A DNA stretch of 23,076 nt, taken from NCBI GenBank assembly GCA_025289735.1, contig GCA_025289735.1_4764.2; one strand, written 5' to 3'. The translations under genes were made by a program, and so were the position numbers. Numbering within the stretch: position 1 is the first letter of the stretch; each line of letters starts with the position of its first letter. This DNA is from a phage. Below are positions 6,805 to 19,476 of the stretch, one piece after another. The notes beneath the pieces are model-generated. The model had not been told where the DNA came from, did no database searches, and was given only the letters and a program-made list of their open reading frames with translations.

Positions 6805-7944
6805 ATGACACAAGAGATAGAATTACGCAACACTGGAGTTAGGTTTGCGCATTTCGACGAAGACTCTGCGACATTTACAAGCATTTCAGAAAACAACTCT
6901 GTGATGTATAAGCTGGAAGTTCGCGGATCTAATGCGGATTCTACCAAACCAGCAAGGATTAGATTTAATGGAGTGGAGATCGTTGGCACTGGCTATGAAA
7001 ATGGCCTAAATTTTAAAGTTCTTACTCCAACTGGACAACTACACGAAGAAAAGGTATTCTATGGTCGCGGTGCTGTATTGGCAATGCGTGATTATCTTTC
7101 TTTGCTGAAAGGTGACTATATCATTGCGATGGCAACGCATGGAGAATTGTTTGCAGATCCGATAAGTGATGTTGTATTTTCTAAGATGGGATCTGTATCA
7201 TTCCCGAATCACATTTTGTTACAGCAAATGCCTCGTGTATCCTATGCAGCAATTTATTCTACTAAAATGGGTAAAATTGTGTGCGAAGGGATGCAAGCAA
7301 CGCACGGGGAAGGTCAAGATTCGTCTATACAGATCGAGAAAGTTTATGATACTATAGACGATCTTGCAATAACAGGAACACCACAACGATTTTTAGATTA
7401 TCCGGTTGAATATGTTAGCGAAGATGCCGAACATTTCGAGCTAATACAATGGCCTCATGATGAGATCAGCGCACCACTTGAGGATTTTAACATAAAGTCA
7501 GGTGACAAACTATCAATATCCTTTGAATTGTTCCGTGATAGTGCCGCAGCCGCAGCCAACGTAACAGCGCGTTTCTATCACAACTACTTCACTGATGGAC
7601 AATATCAAACTGGCGTTCGTTATAATGCCAGCCAGAAAGATCAATGGGAAAAGTTTGAAACCGTCTATACCGTACCGGAAGGAGTTGATAGTGTTACCAC
7701 TGGTTGTATCAGATATCCAACCAACTCCAACGAAGGTATTGTTAAAATTAGAAACATACTAATAACGCCGATCAGTGGAGTCGTCAAAACTACTGGTCCT
7801 ACTTCATTTGGTGTTAATGGTGTTAGAACAACTCATATTCAGGATAACGGTGATTTTACTAACCCTGTAATGAGTCTTCTTAAACTGCCTAGAGATAATA
7901 AACACATCACATCCAACAACTTTAAAGAGTTCGATGTTGATTAA
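6805..7944 (+). CDS. 35: probable long tail fiber hinge protein gp35
   Basis: 379 aa (T4 gp35 about 372 aa), immediately downstream of gp34 with no separate promoter. Assignment by synteny and size; sequence similarity not confirmed from memory. Confidence 0.5.
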   Translation: MTQEIELRNTGVRFAHFDEDSATFTSISENNSVMYKLEVRGSNADSTKPARIRFNGVEIVGTGYENGLNFKVLTPTGQLHEEKVFYGRGAVLAMRDYLSLLKGDYIIAMATHGELFADPISDVVFSKMGSVSFPNHILLQQMPRVSYAAIYSTKMGKIVCEGMQATHGEGQDSSIQIEKVYDTIDDLAITGTPQRFLDYPVEYVSEDAEHFELIQWPHDEISAPLEDFNIKSGDKLSISFELFRDSAAAAANVTARFYHNYFTDGQYQTGVRYNASQKDQWEKFETVYTVPEGVDSVTTGCIRYPTNSNEGIVKIRNILITPISGVVKTTGPTSFGVNGVRTTHIQDNGDFTNPVMSLLKLPRDNKHITSNNFKEFDVD

Positions 7945-7986: not shown

Positions 7987-8125
7987 ACAGTTGGTTAAAA
8001 CATAACCAAAACGAAGAAAGATCTTTAGAATAATAAAAATTTGTTTCGGTTAAAAAGTAGTCAGTGCCTACGGCACGTCGCAAAGCGACAATTGTTAATA
8101 AATATTTTCATTTGAGGAATCAGTA

Positions 8126-9683: not shown

Positions 9684-10148
9684 ATGACCCCGTTTAGAGA
9701 ATCCGTTAAAGGTACATATGCGGCGGTTAAATTCACTGAGGATACACTAGACCGCATTGAAAAATTGCAGGAGTTCTACGATCTTCCTAATGCCGTTCCT
9801 CGTGATAAACTGCATAGCACTATCTTATATTCTCGTGTCTATGTTCCGTTTATCCCAGAAGAAGGGGAGAAGTTCTTAGGCTCTCTGTGTCATCTGAAAG
9901 TGTTTGAAACACAATCCGGTACTAATGCGCTTGTGCTGGCATTTGAAAGCGACTACATGCAATTCAGACACGATATCGGCACTGCTTTAGGTGCGACGTG
10001 GGATTATCCTGAATATGTACCGCATATCACGCTTTCTTATGATGTTGGTGCGCGTAAATTTGGCACTGACCTAGAGTTCGATTTAGAGATTGTCCGATCT
10101 CATGAGTATGTCGAAGATCTAGACCTGGAGTGGACGACCAAACTGTAA
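9684..10148 (+). CDS. acb1: 2H phosphoesterase, 57B/Acb1-like (anti-CBASS cyclic-oligonucleotide phosphodiesterase candidate)
   Basis: 154 aa from ATG at 9684 (the track start 9678 is TTG; GGAGG RBS 7 nt upstream of 9684). Two H-x-T-x motifs (HSTILY, HITLSY) typical of 2H phosphoesterases; T4 57B/Acb1 is about 152 aa and adjacent to 57A and gene 1. Confidence 0.65.
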   Translation: MTPFRESVKGTYAAVKFTEDTLDRIEKLQEFYDLPNAVPRDKLHSTILYSRVYVPFIPEEGEKFLGSLCHLKVFETQSGTNALVLAFESDYMQFRHDIGTALGATWDYPEYVPHITLSYDVGARKFGTDLEFDLEIVRSHEYVEDLDLEWTTKL

Positions 10149-10259: not shown

Positions 10260-10634
10260 ATGATGATGTTTAAAGATAAATTCGAATGTCACTACACCCG
10301 TAACTTTGACTTAGTATCCCGCTACTACATTCATAAAGAAACTGGCACGCAAGTAGTTCTTGAATCTCACAGCGAAGTAGGATTCGATTCAACAAAAGTA
10401 GCAATTAGTGCTCGCTTCTGGGATAACGGCAAATTTGCTTATATCGCTTGGAACGACGACGAAAATGTAATTACAGTAGCTTTCGGTGATGACTACTACA
10501 CTAAAAAGACTTTTGATAGCAAGCCATCAAATGAATATCTGAAAGCGTATGTTCAGCACATGTTCCAACGTGTTCTGACCGGAATGGAAATCAATGTCAT
10601 GAAAGACATTGTAGACGAAGTAAAATATTCTTAA
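10260..10634 (+). CDS. hypothetical protein (124 aa)
   Basis: ORF with promoter and RBS directly upstream; no recognised homolog. Confidence 0.7.
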   Translation: MMMFKDKFECHYTRNFDLVSRYYIHKETGTQVVLESHSEVGFDSTKVAISARFWDNGKFAYIAWNDDENVITVAFGDDYYTKKTFDSKPSNEYLKAYVQHMFQRVLTGMEINVMKDIVDEVKYS

Positions 10635-10640
10635 AAATAG

Positions 10641-10669
10641 TTGACAACATGAAACGGGGGTAGTAAGAT
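10641..10669 (+). promoter_or_regulatory. early promoter module copy 2 (TTGACA-17-TAAGAT) with inverted repeat over the -10
   Basis: TTGACA 10641-10646; GGGGGTA (10656-10662) / TACCCCC (10669-10675) inverted repeat flanks the -10; leader CAAACGAAAGGAG. Near-identical to the module at 19448. Confidence 0.65.
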
Positions 10670-10700
10670 ACCCCCACAAACAAACGAAAGGAGAATCAAA

Positions 10701-10859
10701 ATGAAATTTATCGGTAAAACTTTTATGTTCGTAGCTGGTACTCTGTTTACTGCAACTCTGTTAGCTGGTGGCTTAGATATCTTTACTGCCTTTGAAACTT
10801 TCGGGTATACTGTAGCATCGGGTGCTCTCTTCGGATTGGGTTTAGCGATTAGCAAATAA
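10701..10859 (+). CDS. small hydrophobic membrane peptide (52 aa)
   Basis: ATG 7 nt after AGGAG, immediately behind promoter copy 2; translation MKFIGKTFMFVAGTLFTATLLAGGLDIFTAFETFGYTVASGALFGLGLAISK. Below the 60-aa cutoff of the ORF track. Confidence 0.6.
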   Translation: MKFIGKTFMFVAGTLFTATLLAGGLDIFTAFETFGYTVASGALFGLGLAISK

Positions 10860-10868
10860 GGTGATAAT

Positions 10869-11072
10869 ATGGAATTTGATATGGTTAAAGCAAAATTTAT
10901 GGGTAAGGATAAGAGCGGTAAAACATTTGTTATTAATAGAACATTGTTTCGCTCTGACCTTAAGTGGGTAACACAACAATTTGCGGAAGTCAACGAGGCA
11001 GTTGTGACATGCTTCGTTGATGATAAAAAAGTTTTTGAAATTGATCGTCGTGGGGTGTCTAATGATCACTAA
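10869..11072 (+). CDS. hypothetical protein (67 aa)
   Basis: ORF with GGTGA RBS; first gene of a translationally coupled chain. Confidence 0.55.
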   Translation: MEFDMVKAKFMGKDKSGKTFVINRTLFRSDLKWVTQQFAEVNEAVVTCFVDDKKVFEIDRRGVSNDH

Positions 11073-11259
11073 ACTGTTTAGTAATACTTTGTTTCTGATT
11101 GCATTTGTTTTCTTTCTGTGTCTGATGATCGGTGTTGTTACAGTTGGTAGCTATTCCGGTATTACCTTAGATGATTTTTGCAAACTTGTTTTGATCTCGT
11201 TTATACCTAGTATTCTGCTCGCTTTATGTGGTGCTTTTAAATGGCTTTGTACGCTATGA
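11062..11259 (+). CDS. small membrane protein (65 aa)
   Basis: ATG at 11062 overlaps the upstream stop; hydrophobic, two predicted TM helices. The track start 11017 is probably too far upstream. Confidence 0.55.
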   Translation: MITKLFSNTLFLIAFVFFLCLMIGVVTVGSYSGITLDDFCKLVLISFIPSILLALCGAFKWLCTL

Positions 11260-11366
11260 ACGAAATAGAACGAATGATGTTGATAGGTGGACCGGAGTTC
11301 ACTAAATTTGATGCAATTCTTATTGCGTTGGGTTTTCTTATGATCTGTTGTATGGTGGCGCTATGA
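11256..11366 (+). CDS. possible micro-protein (36 aa, hydrophobic)
   Basis: ATG at 11256 overlaps the upstream stop (ATGA); its own stop overlaps the next ATG at 11363. Manual translation MNEIERMMLIGGPEFTKFDAILIALGFLMICCMVAL. Confidence 0.35.
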   Translation: MNEIERMMLIGGPEFTKFDAILIALGFLMICCMVAL

Positions 11367-11587
11367 GTAGCATAAAATATTTTGCTTTCTTGTGTTTTAT
11401 GATGTTCTTCACATTCTTAGCATGTGTTTTCTTTACCTGGCTTGCTCATGTTGATAATGCAACCGGACCGTTTTACTTCTTCTGTGTATTGTCTGTGTTG
11501 ACTGGTGCTCTTGTTACGTGGATGATTCGAGATTGTTACGGAATGTATAAGTTTGAAAAGACTCGACCGAAATGGGGCAAACGATGA
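11363..11587 (+). CDS. small membrane protein (74 aa)
   Basis: Hydrophobic ORF, ATG at 11363 (track start 11348 is TTG). Confidence 0.55.
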   Translation: MSSIKYFAFLCFMMFFTFLACVFFTWLAHVDNATGPFYFFCVLSVLTGALVTWMIRDCYGMYKFEKTRPKWGKR

Positions 11588-11766
11588 AATTATTTGCATG
11601 GCTAATTATTTTAAATGTAATTGTTAAGACCTTTCTCGCTGGTCTGATGATGGCGCATAGCACCGAACCAGAAGAAGCATTAACGTATTTTGTTGCTTAT
11701 GTGTTGGGATTCTTGCTTACTGCGTGGATGTGTGATGAATATCGAAGAATTGAGGTAAAACCATGA
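11584..11766 (+). CDS. small membrane protein (60 aa)
   Basis: ATG at 11584 overlapping the upstream stop (ATGA); hydrophobic. Confidence 0.5.
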   Translation: MKLFAWLIILNVIVKTFLAGLMMAHSTEPEEALTYFVAYVLGFLLTAWMCDEYRRIEVKP

Positions 11767-11981
11767 AAATGACTTTTTATATCTTAGCAAGTATCATGCT
11801 TGTGATCTCTTCTGCCTTATTTGCATTTCTTACCGTTTGGGGGATCTGTACTGATGCGAAGCCGTGGGATATCGTAGAAAATACGGTTATGTTTATTATT
11901 AGTGTCATGTGTCTTTTTGATGCATTTAACTCTATCAAGGAAGAAGATCAAAAACGTCGCGAGAGAAAGCGATATAAATAA
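11763..11981 (+). CDS. small membrane protein (72 aa) with basic C-terminal tail
   Basis: Start overlaps the upstream stop; two hydrophobic segments then KEEDQKRRERKRYK. Confidence 0.55.
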   Translation: MKMTFYILASIMLVISSALFAFLTVWGICTDAKPWDIVENTVMFIISVMCLFDAFNSIKEEDQKRRERKRYK

Positions 11982-12132
11982 TAGTGAACTAAAGACAGCG
12001 CGGTTAGAATGATTTGGACGTCACCTAGCCGCATTTATTACAGCGTATGTGGGCTATCCGGTACGCTAAAGCATTCACTTGCTAGGCCGCTAGCAGGTTG
12101 GAGACAAGGAAGATTCGCTACCTTCCCTATAA

Positions 12133-12156
12133 GCCACTCTTCGGAGTGGCTTTTTT
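12133..12156 (+). terminator. rho-independent terminator (UUCG tetraloop)
   Basis: GCCACTC-TTCG-GAGTGGC followed by TTTTTT. Confidence 0.8.
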
Positions 12157-12184
12157 ATTGCCTAAAATTTTTTTAAAAAAGTTG

Positions 12185-12213
12185 TTGACACCAGATCCGG
12201 CCTATAGCATAAT
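12185..12213 (+). promoter_or_regulatory. early promoter module copy 3 (TTGACA-17-CATAAT)
   Basis: TTGACA 12185-12190, CATAAT 12208-12213, preceded by an A/T tract (12161-12180), followed by leader ATCGAAACGAAACACAC. Confidence 0.7.
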
Positions 12214-13563: not shown

Positions 13564-13746
13564 ATGAAAAAGATTAATTGGTTAGCGAACATAGGCGCGG
13601 TCTGCGCCTTTAACATCCTCGGATGGATAATGTTACATTTTGATGAGCGAGTTTCAAAATGTGAGGGTGCATTGATTCTCGGATCTGCTAGCATATTCAT
13701 TATGCTGTATGCAATTGCTGTTGACTTAAGCCGCGAGGATTGTTAA
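13564..13746 (+). CDS. small membrane protein (60 aa)
   Basis: Two hydrophobic segments. Confidence 0.5.
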   Translation: MKKINWLANIGAVCAFNILGWIMLHFDERVSKCEGALILGSASIFIMLYAIAVDLSREDC

Positions 13747-13747
13747 T

Positions 13748-13942
13748 ATGAATATTACTAATACTGCCATCGGATTTTCGAGCGCCTTTGCTAGTTTCTT
13801 TGCGCTGGTCTGTATGTTTGTTTTTATTCCTGTTGTATATCTTGGATATTGTGATATTGAAATTGCATTGATTGCTGGGATCTATATGTGGGTTGCGGTC
13901 TTTGTTCTTTCTGTTATAATGTGCAAGATTATTGACCATTGA
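13748..13942 (+). CDS. small membrane protein (64 aa)
   Basis: Strongly hydrophobic, two predicted TM helices. Confidence 0.5.
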   Translation: MNITNTAIGFSSAFASFFALVCMFVFIPVVYLGYCDIEIALIAGIYMWVAVFVLSVIMCKIIDH

Positions 13943-14558: not shown

Positions 14559-14717
14559 ATGGTTGAACAAATGTTAACTTCAATGGTAATGGCTTTCTGT
14601 GTGGGTGTTGTTCTGTTTGCGATGATTCCAAAAGACCGAATGAATCTGCTTGTTGCTGTGTGTTTGGGTGTGGTTAGCGGTTGGTGTGGAATCGTTCTAG
14701 AACACGCTCTGCGATGA
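14559..14717 (+). CDS. small membrane peptide (52 aa)
   Basis: ATG at 14559 just after the upstream stop; manual translation MVEQMLTSMVMAFCVGVVLFAMIPKDRMNLLVAVCLGVVSGWCGIVLEHALR. Confidence 0.45.
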   Translation: MVEQMLTSMVMAFCVGVVLFAMIPKDRMNLLVAVCLGVVSGWCGIVLEHALR

Positions 14718-14725
14718 TTAACAAT

Positions 14726-14750
14726 GCGGGTAGGGTAATGTACTACCCGC
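14726..14750 (+). other. stable stem-loop (GCGGGTAG / CTACCCGC), no T-run
   Basis: 8-bp perfect stem with 9-nt loop between the small ORFs and the membrane-protein/endolysin cluster. Confidence 0.5.
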
Positions 14751-14778
14751 ACTAAATTAGCTCACTGGAGGGCTTTCT

Positions 14779-14967
14779 ATGGCGTTTTGTCTATGGTTGC
14801 TTATAGTATGCTTTGTAATTGGTTTATGCTTCTATACTGGCGTATTCTGTTTTGTCGCCTGGATAGACGGCGGATTCTCTAATATCATTTTGCTTGCAGG
14901 ATCAATTGCCTCGTTTCTGTTTATTTGGCTATTTTCATATTTGATTGGTGAATGGGATTTATTATGA
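14779..14967 (+). CDS. small membrane protein (62 aa)
   Basis: GGAGGG RBS; two hydrophobic helices. Confidence 0.55.
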   Translation: MAFCLWLLIVCFVIGLCFYTGVFCFVAWIDGGFSNIILLAGSIASFLFIWLFSYLIGEWDLL

Positions 14968-15143
14968 ACAAATATATGTTTTGGGCGACCATTGCCTATG
15001 TTGTGATTGCGGTAGTATGGGGATTCTGTGTTATTGTCGCTTCTCTGATCTGGTGGGAATCACTTGGTGCGGGTTGTCTGATTAGCGGCGCATCATGTCT
15101 TATCACTGGCGTGATTGTTGGTTTTCTTGTGTCGGAGGCTTGA
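14964..15143 (+). CDS. small membrane protein (59 aa)
   Basis: ATG 14964 overlaps the upstream stop; hydrophobic. Confidence 0.5.
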   Translation: MNKYMFWATIAYVVIAVVWGFCVIVASLIWWESLGAGCLISGASCLITGVIVGFLVSEA

Positions 15144-15145
15144 CA

Positions 15146-15361
15146 ATGGTTTTCTTCGGTCTTATTATAATGGTGCTTAATGTCATTTGTGGCGTTGCTA
15201 TGTTAGCTATGGCCTTTACTGTTCCTATGTCTGTTGATAGCGCCGCATCCGTAGGTGTGTTGGGAATTGTAAACCTGTTTACCGCCCTAGCATGTTGGAT
15301 CACCGGACGCGATGAGGTAATGTATTACTTTTATAAACGTAAACAGAGAAAAGGAAAATAA
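15146..15361 (+). CDS. small membrane protein (71 aa) with basic C-terminus
   Basis: ATG 15146 with GGAGG RBS at 15134-15138; two TM segments then KRKQRKGK. Confidence 0.5.
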   Translation: MVFFGLIIMVLNVICGVAMLAMAFTVPMSVDSAASVGVLGIVNLFTALACWITGRDEVMYYFYKRKQRKGK

Positions 15362-15362
15362 T

Positions 15363-15554
15363 ATGAAATTTGCATTTGGTTTTACCGTGATGTTGATTAT
15401 TGCTCTGAGTATGTGTACCGGAATGCTTGTATTTGGTCTTGCAAACGGATTTAGCATTTATAATAATCAGTGGGTTGATTGGGGAATGGTTGTCGTTAAT
15501 GCGATCCTGATTGGTGCTAATACAAGAAATCTATGCAGGATCGCCGGAATCTAA
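15363..15554 (+). CDS. small membrane protein (63 aa)
   Basis: Hydrophobic ORF directly upstream of the endolysin gene. Confidence 0.5.
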   Translation: MKFAFGFTVMLIIALSMCTGMLVFGLANGFSIYNNQWVDWGMVVVNAILIGANTRNLCRIAGI

Positions 15555-15582: not shown

Positions 15583-15972
15583 ATGTTTAAATTATCTCAA
15601 AGAAGCAAAGATCGGCTTGTTGGTGTACATCCTGATCTGGTAAAAGTCGTTCATCGTGCGTTAGAACTGACTCCGGTCGATTTTGGTATTACGGAAGGTG
15701 TGCGTAGTCTAGAAACGCAAAAGAAATATGTTGCGGAAGGTAAATCTAAGACTATGAAATCTCGTCATCTTCACGGTTTCGCGGTTGACGTTGTAGCGTA
15801 TCCGAAAGATAAGGATACATGGAACATGAAATACTACCGCATGATCGCGGATGCATTTAAACAAGCTGGTCGAGAATTGGGTGTTCCTGTTATCTGCGGT
15901 GTTGATTGGGTTACTTTTAAAGACGGACCGCATATGGAACTCGATAAAAAGGTATATCCAGACCCGGTATAA
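15583..15972 (+). CDS. endolysin, L-alanyl-D-glutamate peptidase (peptidase M15, T5-type)
   Basis: 129 aa; similar to T5 endolysin as recalled (VHPDL.KVV.RALELTPVDFGI.EGVR; SRHLHGFAVDV with H-x6-D zinc site; DGPHMEL). Occupies the position of T4 gene e but belongs to a different enzyme family. Confidence 0.8.
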   Translation: MFKLSQRSKDRLVGVHPDLVKVVHRALELTPVDFGITEGVRSLETQKKYVAEGKSKTMKSRHLHGFAVDVVAYPKDKDTWNMKYYRMIADAFKQAGRELGVPVICGVDWVTFKDGPHMELDKKVYPDPV

Positions 15973-19447: not shown

Positions 19448-19476
19448 TTGACAGCATGAAACGGGGGTAGTAATAT
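19448..19476 (+). promoter_or_regulatory. early promoter module copy 6 (TTGACA-17-TAATAT) with inverted repeat over the -10
   Basis: TTGACA 19448-19453; GGGGGTA/TACCCCC inverted repeat (19463-19482); leader ATCGAAACAACAAAGGAG. Near-identical to copy 2. Confidence 0.65.

Follow-up and report, generated by a model that had tools for sequence, protein, structure and literature searches.

No part of T4-type phage genomes is less well understood than their small membrane proteins, very few of which, Imm and RI among them, have a known role. Is a chain of very short open reading frames (ORFs) behind an early promoter a set of real genes, and what could its products do in the infected cell? We addressed this question for positions 10701-11981 of a 23,076-nt stretch of phage DNA (NCBI GenBank assembly GCA_025289735.1, contig GCA_025289735.1_4764.2; the whole stretch is hereafter called the window). 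A first-pass annotation had described this locus as a translationally coupled operon of six or seven micro membrane proteins. The window is RB49-like T4-type coliphage DNA of the genus Krischvirus (Straboviridae): positions 10600-12200 matched 59 phage records in GenBank (93-99% identity), every one of them Krischvirus, with vB_EcoM_G2494 as the closest match (99.3%). Seven plus-strand ORFs, here o1 to o7, occupy the locus. Six of them encode predicted membrane proteins, and the second encodes the antitoxin Dmd. They correspond to RB49p124 to RB49p118 in RB49, where they have been annotated since the 2003 record; as hypothetical proteins, the ORFs are thus already known. The locus offers a compact test case, in which six micro membrane proteins, unrelated to one another and always co-inherited, would share one early mRNA with an antitoxin and lie beside an anti-CBASS gene.

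Layout of the seven-ORF operon and its dmd gene

The product of o2 (10869-11072, plus strand, 67 amino acids) is, by its sequence, Dmd, of the antitoxin family directed against RnlA/LsoA-type toxins. It scored 57.7 bits against Pfam PF17587 (cut-off, 27) over model positions 2-60 of 60, and matched phrog_2102 with an E value of 2.3e-31. A phmmer comparison with T4 Dmd (PDB 5HY3 chain B) aligned the two proteins end to end, residues 4-62 onto 2-60 of 60 (E = 2.6e-13). The protein was 47% identical to the Dmd proteins from about 740 T4-group phages, and the gene is annotated as dmd in RB49. T4 makes the antitoxin Dmd early to block the host toxin RnlA; when Dmd is missing, the middle and late mRNAs are destroyed (PMC3014915; PMC9391042). 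The first-pass annotation had missed this gene and taken the whole chain to be hydrophobic. This holds for the other six ORFs (grand average of hydropathy, GRAVY, 0.32-1.67) but not for o2, which is soluble (GRAVY -0.42), and the locus is accordingly not a purely membrane operon: it combines six predicted membrane proteins with one cytoplasmic antitoxin.

The six remaining ORFs flank dmd on the same strand. On its 5′ side lies o1 (RB49p124, 10701-10859), which encodes a predicted glycine-rich two-helix membrane hairpin of 52 amino acids behind a strong Shine-Dalgarno sequence, AAGGAG. On its 3′ side, o3 (RB49p122, 11062-11259, 65 amino acids) is the most variable member and occurs in two allelic forms. 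It is followed by o4 (RB49p121, 11256-11366), whose product of 36 amino acids (41 from a start at 11241) consists of a 19-residue acidic head and a predicted C-terminal transmembrane (TM) helix, and by o5 (RB49p120, 11363-11587, 74 amino acids), the most conserved member, with a basic C-terminal tail. The chain ends with o6 (RB49p119, 11584-11766, 60 amino acids), which has the acidic loop STEPEEALT, and o7 (RB49p118, 11763-11981, 72 amino acids), which has the highly charged C-terminal tail KEEDQKRRERKRYK. Like o1, the products of o3, o5, o6 and o7 are predicted two-TM hairpins. The size range of 36-74 amino acids given earlier is correct for the seven ORFs.

Stop and start codons overlap at five of the six gene junctions. 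A gap of 9 nt separates o1 from o2, o2 and o3 overlap by 11 nt, and the junctions from o3 to o7 are four ATGA overlaps; the overlaps are kept in relatives. Besides ATGA, the first-pass annotation had named TAATG as a junction motif. This sequence is present at 11060-11064, but its TAA is out of frame for o2 and is the true o2 stop only in three of 13 relatives (SSG23, JSE and Makalu_003), where a 1-nt insertion at 11051 brings it into frame.

The promoter that had been proposed for this chain, the second of several copies, was confirmed in the sequence as TTGACA-17-TAAGAT at 10641-10669. It belongs to a promoter-early stem-loop (PeSL)-type early promoter cassette on the plus strand (10641-10677) of the sigma-70 type, with the -35 element TTGACA at 10641-10646, a 17-nt spacer and the -10 element TAAGAT at 10664-10669. 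An A/T-rich stretch (aaaaatag) lies upstream, a G5/C5 stem-loop at 10654-10677, ACGGGGGTA...TACCCCCAC, overlaps the -10 box, and AAGGAG-N8-ATG follows downstream. The cassette at 10641-10677 thus has all the parts by which PeSLs are defined, namely sigma-70 -35 and -10 elements, an A/T-rich upstream stretch, a G/C stem-loop, a Shine-Dalgarno sequence with a start codon, and a location in a hyperplastic region. The window contains six such cassettes, of which the copy at 19448 is nearly identical to that of the operon. The site is annotated as a promoter in GEC-3S, and its hairpin as a terminator in G2494. In RB49 and phi1, experiments have shown PeSLs to be strong promoters and terminators (Arbiol et al. 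2010, PMC2839356); the assays were made on PeSLs other than the copy considered here. The operon begins with a textbook PeSL in an ORFan-rich hyperplastic region, as that study described; dmd, ORF118, ORF124 and ORF125 are not mentioned in it. Whereas the PeSL-bounded units described there are mobile single-ORFan modules that come and go, the seven-gene unit is invariant across all 59 genomes.

At the other end, the transcription unit is closed by a predicted intrinsic terminator on the plus strand (12131-12160), composed of a 9-bp stem with a UUCG loop (12131-12152) and a T-run. The records of GEC-3S, G2494 and the Makalu phages carry a terminator annotation at this site. Within the operon we found no further terminator, and internal promoter-like sites were at chance level (16 found versus 10.1 ± 3.0 expected). 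With a single promoter, a single terminator and overlapping stops and starts, the operon architecture is well supported by the DNA sequence, and the polycistronic unit proposed at first, with its coupling-compatible overlaps, stands.

The calculated duplex with the anti-Shine-Dalgarno sequence was strongest for o1 (-8.7 kcal/mol), lay between -4.7 and -6.9 kcal/mol for dmd, o3, o5, o6 and o7, and was only -1.5 kcal/mol for o4, which has no Shine-Dalgarno site. The overlaps would permit translational coupling, and the missing Shine-Dalgarno site of o4 fits this; the pattern is suggestive. We infer that the mRNA would be made immediately after infection by unmodified host sigma-70 RNA polymerase, and that ribosomes would load at the strong o1 Shine-Dalgarno sequence and re-initiate down the chain. 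Because o4 has so weak a duplex, its translation would depend on coupling. Coupled translation would also make the products appear together and in similar amounts.

Predicted topology and coding evidence for the six micro-proteins

The prediction of TM segments that had been suggested as a check agreed with the membrane assignment for o1 and o3-o7. Their KD19 maxima ranged from 1.64 (o1) to 3.02 (o3). Two hydrophobic helices were found in o1, o3, o5, o6 and o7 and a single one in o4. The five two-helix proteins share K/R at the N-terminus, an acidic or uncharged loop of 8-12 residues and further K/R residues after helix 2. Since the positive-inside rule places both K/R-rich ends in the cytoplasm, we predict five N-in/C-in two-helix inner-membrane hairpins and one single-helix protein. 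The C-terminal tails carry +7/-2 charges in o5 and +8/-4 in o7. AlphaFold2, run on single sequences, modelled helices at residues 2-29 and 34-71 of o7 (pLDDT 85) and at residues 4-31 and 35-67 of o5 (pLDDT 75).

Could these ORFs be non-functional, either chance hydrophobic frames in T-rich DNA or remnants of a larger membrane protein gene? They are very short, have no homologues beyond one genus, and some of them are skipped by gene callers and annotators, all of which would suit such an explanation. The comparison with relatives largely refutes it. None of the seven ORFs is interrupted in any of 13 GenBank relatives, and the same is true of L021 and L024, two metagenomic relatives that are more divergent and were reached through an o1 homologue. 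Among the 13 GenBank relatives, the sole indel within 10701-11981 is a 1-nt insertion near the 3′ end of dmd, and the indels of L021 and L024 (12 nt in o1, 6 nt in dmd) are all in frame; indels at this locus are thus either in frame or compensated by an alternative stop. Every start codon in the 14 genomes is ATG, apart from that of o4 in Phi1, which is ATA.

The pN/pS ratio, summed over all pairs, was 0.07 for o1, 0.18 for dmd, 0.47 for o3, 0.34 for o4, 0.07 for o5, 0.24 for o6 and 0.11 for o7. For every ORF the minimum fell in the annotated frame, and the variable sites were concentrated at codon position 3. Against L021, dN/dS ranged from 0.04 to 0.40 overall, with 0.04 for o5 and 0.20 for o7. 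Loss of the reading frames in related phages had been named as an outcome that would speak against the operon; the frames are instead conserved and under purifying selection, in the annotated frame only. These sequence comparisons indicate that the seven ORFs are real genes under purifying selection. A split or decayed polytopic membrane protein was also considered and rejected, since o3-o7 joined into one sequence of 307 amino acids had no Pfam match at E ≤ 1. Given the conserved frames and starts, and a variant described below in which o4 and o5 are fused with both frames open, we regard the absence of function as scarcely credible.

The most variable member, o3, showed 60-99% amino acid identity across the 59 records. 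Divergence was also uneven along the locus in L021, a 174.8-kb metagenomic Krischvirus-like contig. Its o7 (7075-7293) has 73% nucleotide identity to the window and its o3 83%, next to 97% for o5, 98.7% for the upstream 124-amino-acid ORF and 93-99% for the flanks of o7. Within o7, the window and L021 differ in helix residues but have the loop motif WDIVEN and the charged tail in common. The mosaic of divergence suggests that single micro-ORFs have either exchanged alleles or undergone locally accelerated evolution.

The start of o4 is ambiguous. The ATG at 11256, within the ATGA overlap, lacks a Shine-Dalgarno sequence, and the alternative in-frame ATG at 11241 is kept in all 14 genomes; GenBank records annotate o4 as 29, 36 or 41 amino acids. 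At the o4/o5 ATGA junction, a single G is inserted in two independent metagenome assemblies (L026, 3001-3312; L027, 2565-2876; equivalent to 11256-11587 of the window). The insertion joins o4 and o5 in frame, and the ATG of o5 itself falls out of frame. The result is an ORF with three predicted helices and 110 amino acids from the o4 ATG, or 103 as given by the gene caller. Such a fusion supports the translation of both ORFs and their action in one place, and would put the C-terminal end of o4 and the N-terminal end of o5 on the same side of the membrane. If the fusion is functional, the topology predicted for o4 is N-out/C-in.

Each of the six membrane ORFs matched exactly the 59 Krischvirus records when 50,697 phage records were searched with tblastn, and none had a match outside Krischvirus at E ≤ 0.1. 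Wider searches gave the same picture. A word search of 5.8e9 proteins found only near-identical relatives of o5 and, for o1, relatives down to 82% identity, all Krischvirus-like; a full HMMER search of 1.84e9 representatives found a single cluster for o7. The only PHROG for o1 was phrog_16462. A Foldseek search of the o7 model against BFVD returned nothing significant. The six are also unrelated to one another: comparisons by BLASTP, phmmer and hhalign, made among the six and against RB49's other 14 small membrane proteins, reached at most 18.9 bits, and shuffled controls gave a mean of 18.2 and a maximum of 23.5.

That several of these ORFs fall below the usual annotation threshold, as had been supposed, applies to some genomes only. 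All seven are annotated in RB49, Phi1, JSE and GEC-3S, and o3, o4 or o5 is skipped in some records, W115, JK32 and Brandy being examples. In W115, four of the ORFs are labelled putative membrane protein. We did not find it stated elsewhere that the ORFs form one invariant early operon with dmd, that the membrane ORFs are restricted to one genus and under purifying selection, or that they belong to a strongly membrane-enriched island beside acb1; all three points are incremental.

Candidate roles of the micro-proteins at the host membrane

Which function could tie six micro membrane proteins to an antitoxin? Our tentative preference, with somewhat less than an even chance of being right, is that they act in immediate-early counter-defence at the host membrane. 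This reading follows from the presence of Dmd in the operon, from Acb1 just upstream and from the co-transcription of T4 dmd with tifA, sp and adfA. The allelic turnover of o3 and o7, as expected of arms-race genes, points the same way. The seven-gene unit is also kept whole, each of the six membrane ORFs being present in all 59 Krischvirus records. In T4, dmd is an early gene (PMC3014915) and shares an early operon with tifA (anti-ToxN), sp (spackle) and adfA (anti-DarT) (PMC9391042). This run, dmd-tifA(61.4)-sp(61.3)-adfA(61.2)-61.1, is the closest analogue of the operon described here. Both have an early promoter and place dmd with small accessory genes, which in T4 act against defences or, in the case of sp, for exclusion, and the two Dmd proteins are homologous (47% identity, PF17587). 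The likeness ends there: the T4 run sits between genes 41 and 61 and the present operon between 57B/acb1 and the endolysin gene, none of the T4 partner genes is common to the RB49 operon, and those partners are soluble or periplasmic, whereas here six integral membrane micro-proteins are predicted.

Under the counter-defence reading, the micro-proteins would insert into the inner membrane and there associate with host membrane proteins or with one another, in the latter case as a small hetero-oligomer. They would form the membrane arm of a counter-defence island and neutralise membrane-embedded or membrane-acting host defence or toxin effectors, with Dmd and Acb1 handling the cytoplasmic ones. 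If any of them neutralises a membrane-acting defence or excludes other phages, the locus would add a membrane class to the phage counter-defence catalogue and would help to account for the host range of Krischvirus phages, a group in use in phage-therapy cocktails. Should they prove dispensable, the locus would be one more ORFan block in a hyperplastic region.

Several points weigh against this preference, and any specific membrane function remains a guess by association. Such association is weak evidence here, because hyperplastic regions shuffle unrelated ORFans through PeSL recombination (PMC2839356). All comparison genomes are at least 90% identical at the locus, so the conservation of the gene set spans little evolutionary time. 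Other transcription units in the neighbourhood hold eight more small membrane ORFs, which makes the membrane theme regional rather than tied to dmd. The six have no significant match in Pfam, NCBIfam or PDB and fall in PHROGs only into small families of their own; at E ≤ 1, Pfam gave only weak, unrelated matches and no anti-defence or exclusion family. No known defence effector was identified as a target of the six. In the literature searched, RB49p118-p124 are not mentioned, and nothing was found on Krischvirus small membrane proteins or on RB49 expression.

Superinfection exclusion and host-membrane targeting, the roles that the first-pass annotation had raised, are plausible candidates. In the case of exclusion, at least one hairpin would do the job of T4 Imm, an early inner-membrane change that bars the DNA of later T-even-type phages. 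The 83 amino acids of T4 Imm, an early protein, comprise two hydrophobic helices and end in a charged tail, an architecture also predicted for o5 and o7; o1, o3 and o6 are also two-helix proteins. Searches of the RB49 genome and the window with T4 Imm, Sp, TifA, AdfA, e.2-e.4 and trna.4 detected no homologue, and of the T4 genes compared only Dmd and 61.1 were found. For imm and sp, the best tblastn E values against RB49 were 8.8 and 0.049. With imm and sp neither detectable nor annotated in RB49, any exclusion function must come from unrelated proteins, and in T4 the exclusion gene sp does sit in the dmd operon. The likeness to Imm is a resemblance in shape only, however, as o5 and o7 have no detectable sequence similarity to it and none of the six matched an Imm family in Pfam at E ≤ 1. 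A two-helix hairpin is moreover a generic shape, and a single exclusion function would leave six different proteins unexplained. We consider this role somewhat unlikely.

The small size and hairpin topology of these proteins, together with a sigma-70-type early promoter, would also suit a general host takeover, in which they inhibit or re-tune inner-membrane machines such as transporters, the respiratory or division apparatus, or proteases such as FtsH. Bacterial small membrane proteins, including AcrZ, MgrB, MgtS and SgrT, modulate larger partners. In o7, the conserved WDIVEN loop and charged tail, combined with variable helices, fit a specific protein contact. No homology was found, and both the restriction to one genus and the fast turnover of o3 and o7 alleles look more like an arms race than like core takeover. 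Takeover appears unlikely.

A stronger form of the counter-defence reading takes literally the roughly equal amounts of the six products that coupled translation would give. They would assemble into one hetero-oligomeric inner-membrane complex of 11 helices, a new membrane-embedded anti-defence device that blocks pore-forming or membrane-depolarising abortive-infection effectors. Its targets would be, for example, the TM effectors of CBASS, retron, Rex-, Kiwa- or Zorya-type systems. The complex would be the membrane counterpart of the cytoplasmic Acb1 and Dmd, and the o4-o5 fusion would be its Rosetta-stone trace. We hold this to be quite improbable.

The setting of the operon bears on a further alternative, namely that the proteins time lysis. 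Among the annotated RB49 coding sequences (CDSs) of up to 100 amino acids (n = 120), we found a predicted TM segment (KD19 ≥ 1.6) in 19. Six of the seven CDSs of the operon had one, versus 13 of 113 elsewhere (Fisher p = 4.7e-5). Over the 5 kb between 57B/acb1 and the endolysin gene the figures were 14 of 19 versus 5 of 101 elsewhere (p = 1.6e-10); that is, 14 of the 19 small predicted membrane proteins of RB49 are encoded within these 5 kb. Further micro membrane ORFs form separate transcription units in the window, two at 13564-13942 and four or five at 14559-15554, and RB49 has the counterpart of these further, unrelated runs of two-helix micro membrane ORFs at 55137-57326. The region ends at the gene for an M15-type endolysin (15583-15972).

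In such a place, holin-like, pinholin-like (class II) or antiholin-like proteins would not be out of keeping. Both o5 and o7 show the usual holin hallmarks of small size, two TM helices and a charged C-terminus, the N-in/C-in topology predicted for the operon hairpins is that of class II holins and pinholins, and o5 has a weak match to Phage_holin_3_6 (E = 0.076, 13.5 bits). That score is far under the 28.4-bit cut-off, and no holin family was matched above threshold. The endolysin gene is not adjacent to the operon but 3.6 kb away, beyond several terminators and at least three further promoter cassettes. The promoter is of the early type, and the mRNA would be shared with an immediate-early antitoxin. 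The sole late-promoter consensus at the operon, TATAAATA, lies at the o7 stop, downstream of all ORFs. RB49 already has a T holin, RI and spanins, and the membrane ORFs at 14559-15554, directly 5′ of the endolysin gene, are better holin or antiholin candidates. A function of the operon in lysis timing is therefore very improbable.

The surrounding region and a structured RNA downstream of o7

In the window, gp3, gp1 (dNMP kinase), gp57A, 57B and a 124-amino-acid ORF come in this order ahead of the operon, which is followed by further small ORFs and the endolysin gene. The 57B homologue (9684-10148) is Acb1, the anti-CBASS nuclease (Pfam PF23474, 174 bits), although it is labelled RNA ligase in RB49. 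At about 550 nt upstream of the dmd operon, acb1 is a second known counter-defence gene nearby. In T4, the same syntenic slot downstream of 3-1-57A-57B is the hyperplastic region from 57B to e, with ipI, trna.2-4, tRNAs, rnaC/rnaD and e.2-e.8. This region also has some small membrane ORFs (trna.4, e.2, e.3 and e.4), four in all compared with 14 in the 57B-to-endolysin slot of Krischvirus. The two regions have no genes in common. The T4 region carries tRNAs, whereas Krischvirus is without them, and no tRNA gene was found in the RB49 genome or in the window. The location of dmd differs as well, being the 57B-endolysin region in RB49 and the 41-61 interval in T4.

Between the o7 stop and the terminator lies a conserved, structured untranslated stretch on the plus strand (11982-12130), which would fold into four hairpins and form the 3′ untranslated region (3′UTR) of the operon. 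It is the most conserved part of the locus: 10 of its 149 sites vary, most of them within a single hairpin loop, versus 9-25% variable sites in the ORFs. The folding energy was -61.6 kcal/mol (z = -3.4), and one base pair shows a compensatory change, from G-C in the window to G.U in L024 and A-U in L021. We found no match to Rfam families, to T4 rnaC/rnaD or to E. coli genomes. The stretch is unannotated in nearly all records listed, and three of the listed records have a hypothetical protein there. A 55-amino-acid ORF at 12009-12176 was rejected as coding, as relatives carry indels of 1-2 nt in it.

The late-promoter consensus TATAAATA mentioned above is that of T4 and occupies positions 11973-11980, directly before the structured stretch; its two copies in the window equal the chance expectation. 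The element, taken with the terminator (11982-12160), may serve as a 3′UTR and, in addition, as a discrete late RNA about 170 nt long, and may perhaps be a more novel item than the membrane ORFs. In the following terminator, the UUCG loop is replaced by GAAA in L021.

A separate observation concerns the 5′ side of this region. At about 8098-8125, between the end of a gp35-like gene (7944) and the start of gp3 (8126), the proximal tail-fibre genes (gp34, connector) are joined directly to gp3-gp1-57A. This arrangement is present in only one of the 59 Krischvirus records (OZ035795.1, LF73P4). In RB49, the tail-fibre block and the gp3-gp1-57A block lie about 87 kb apart on opposite strands, and the junction suggests that this genome has undergone a large inversion or rearrangement.

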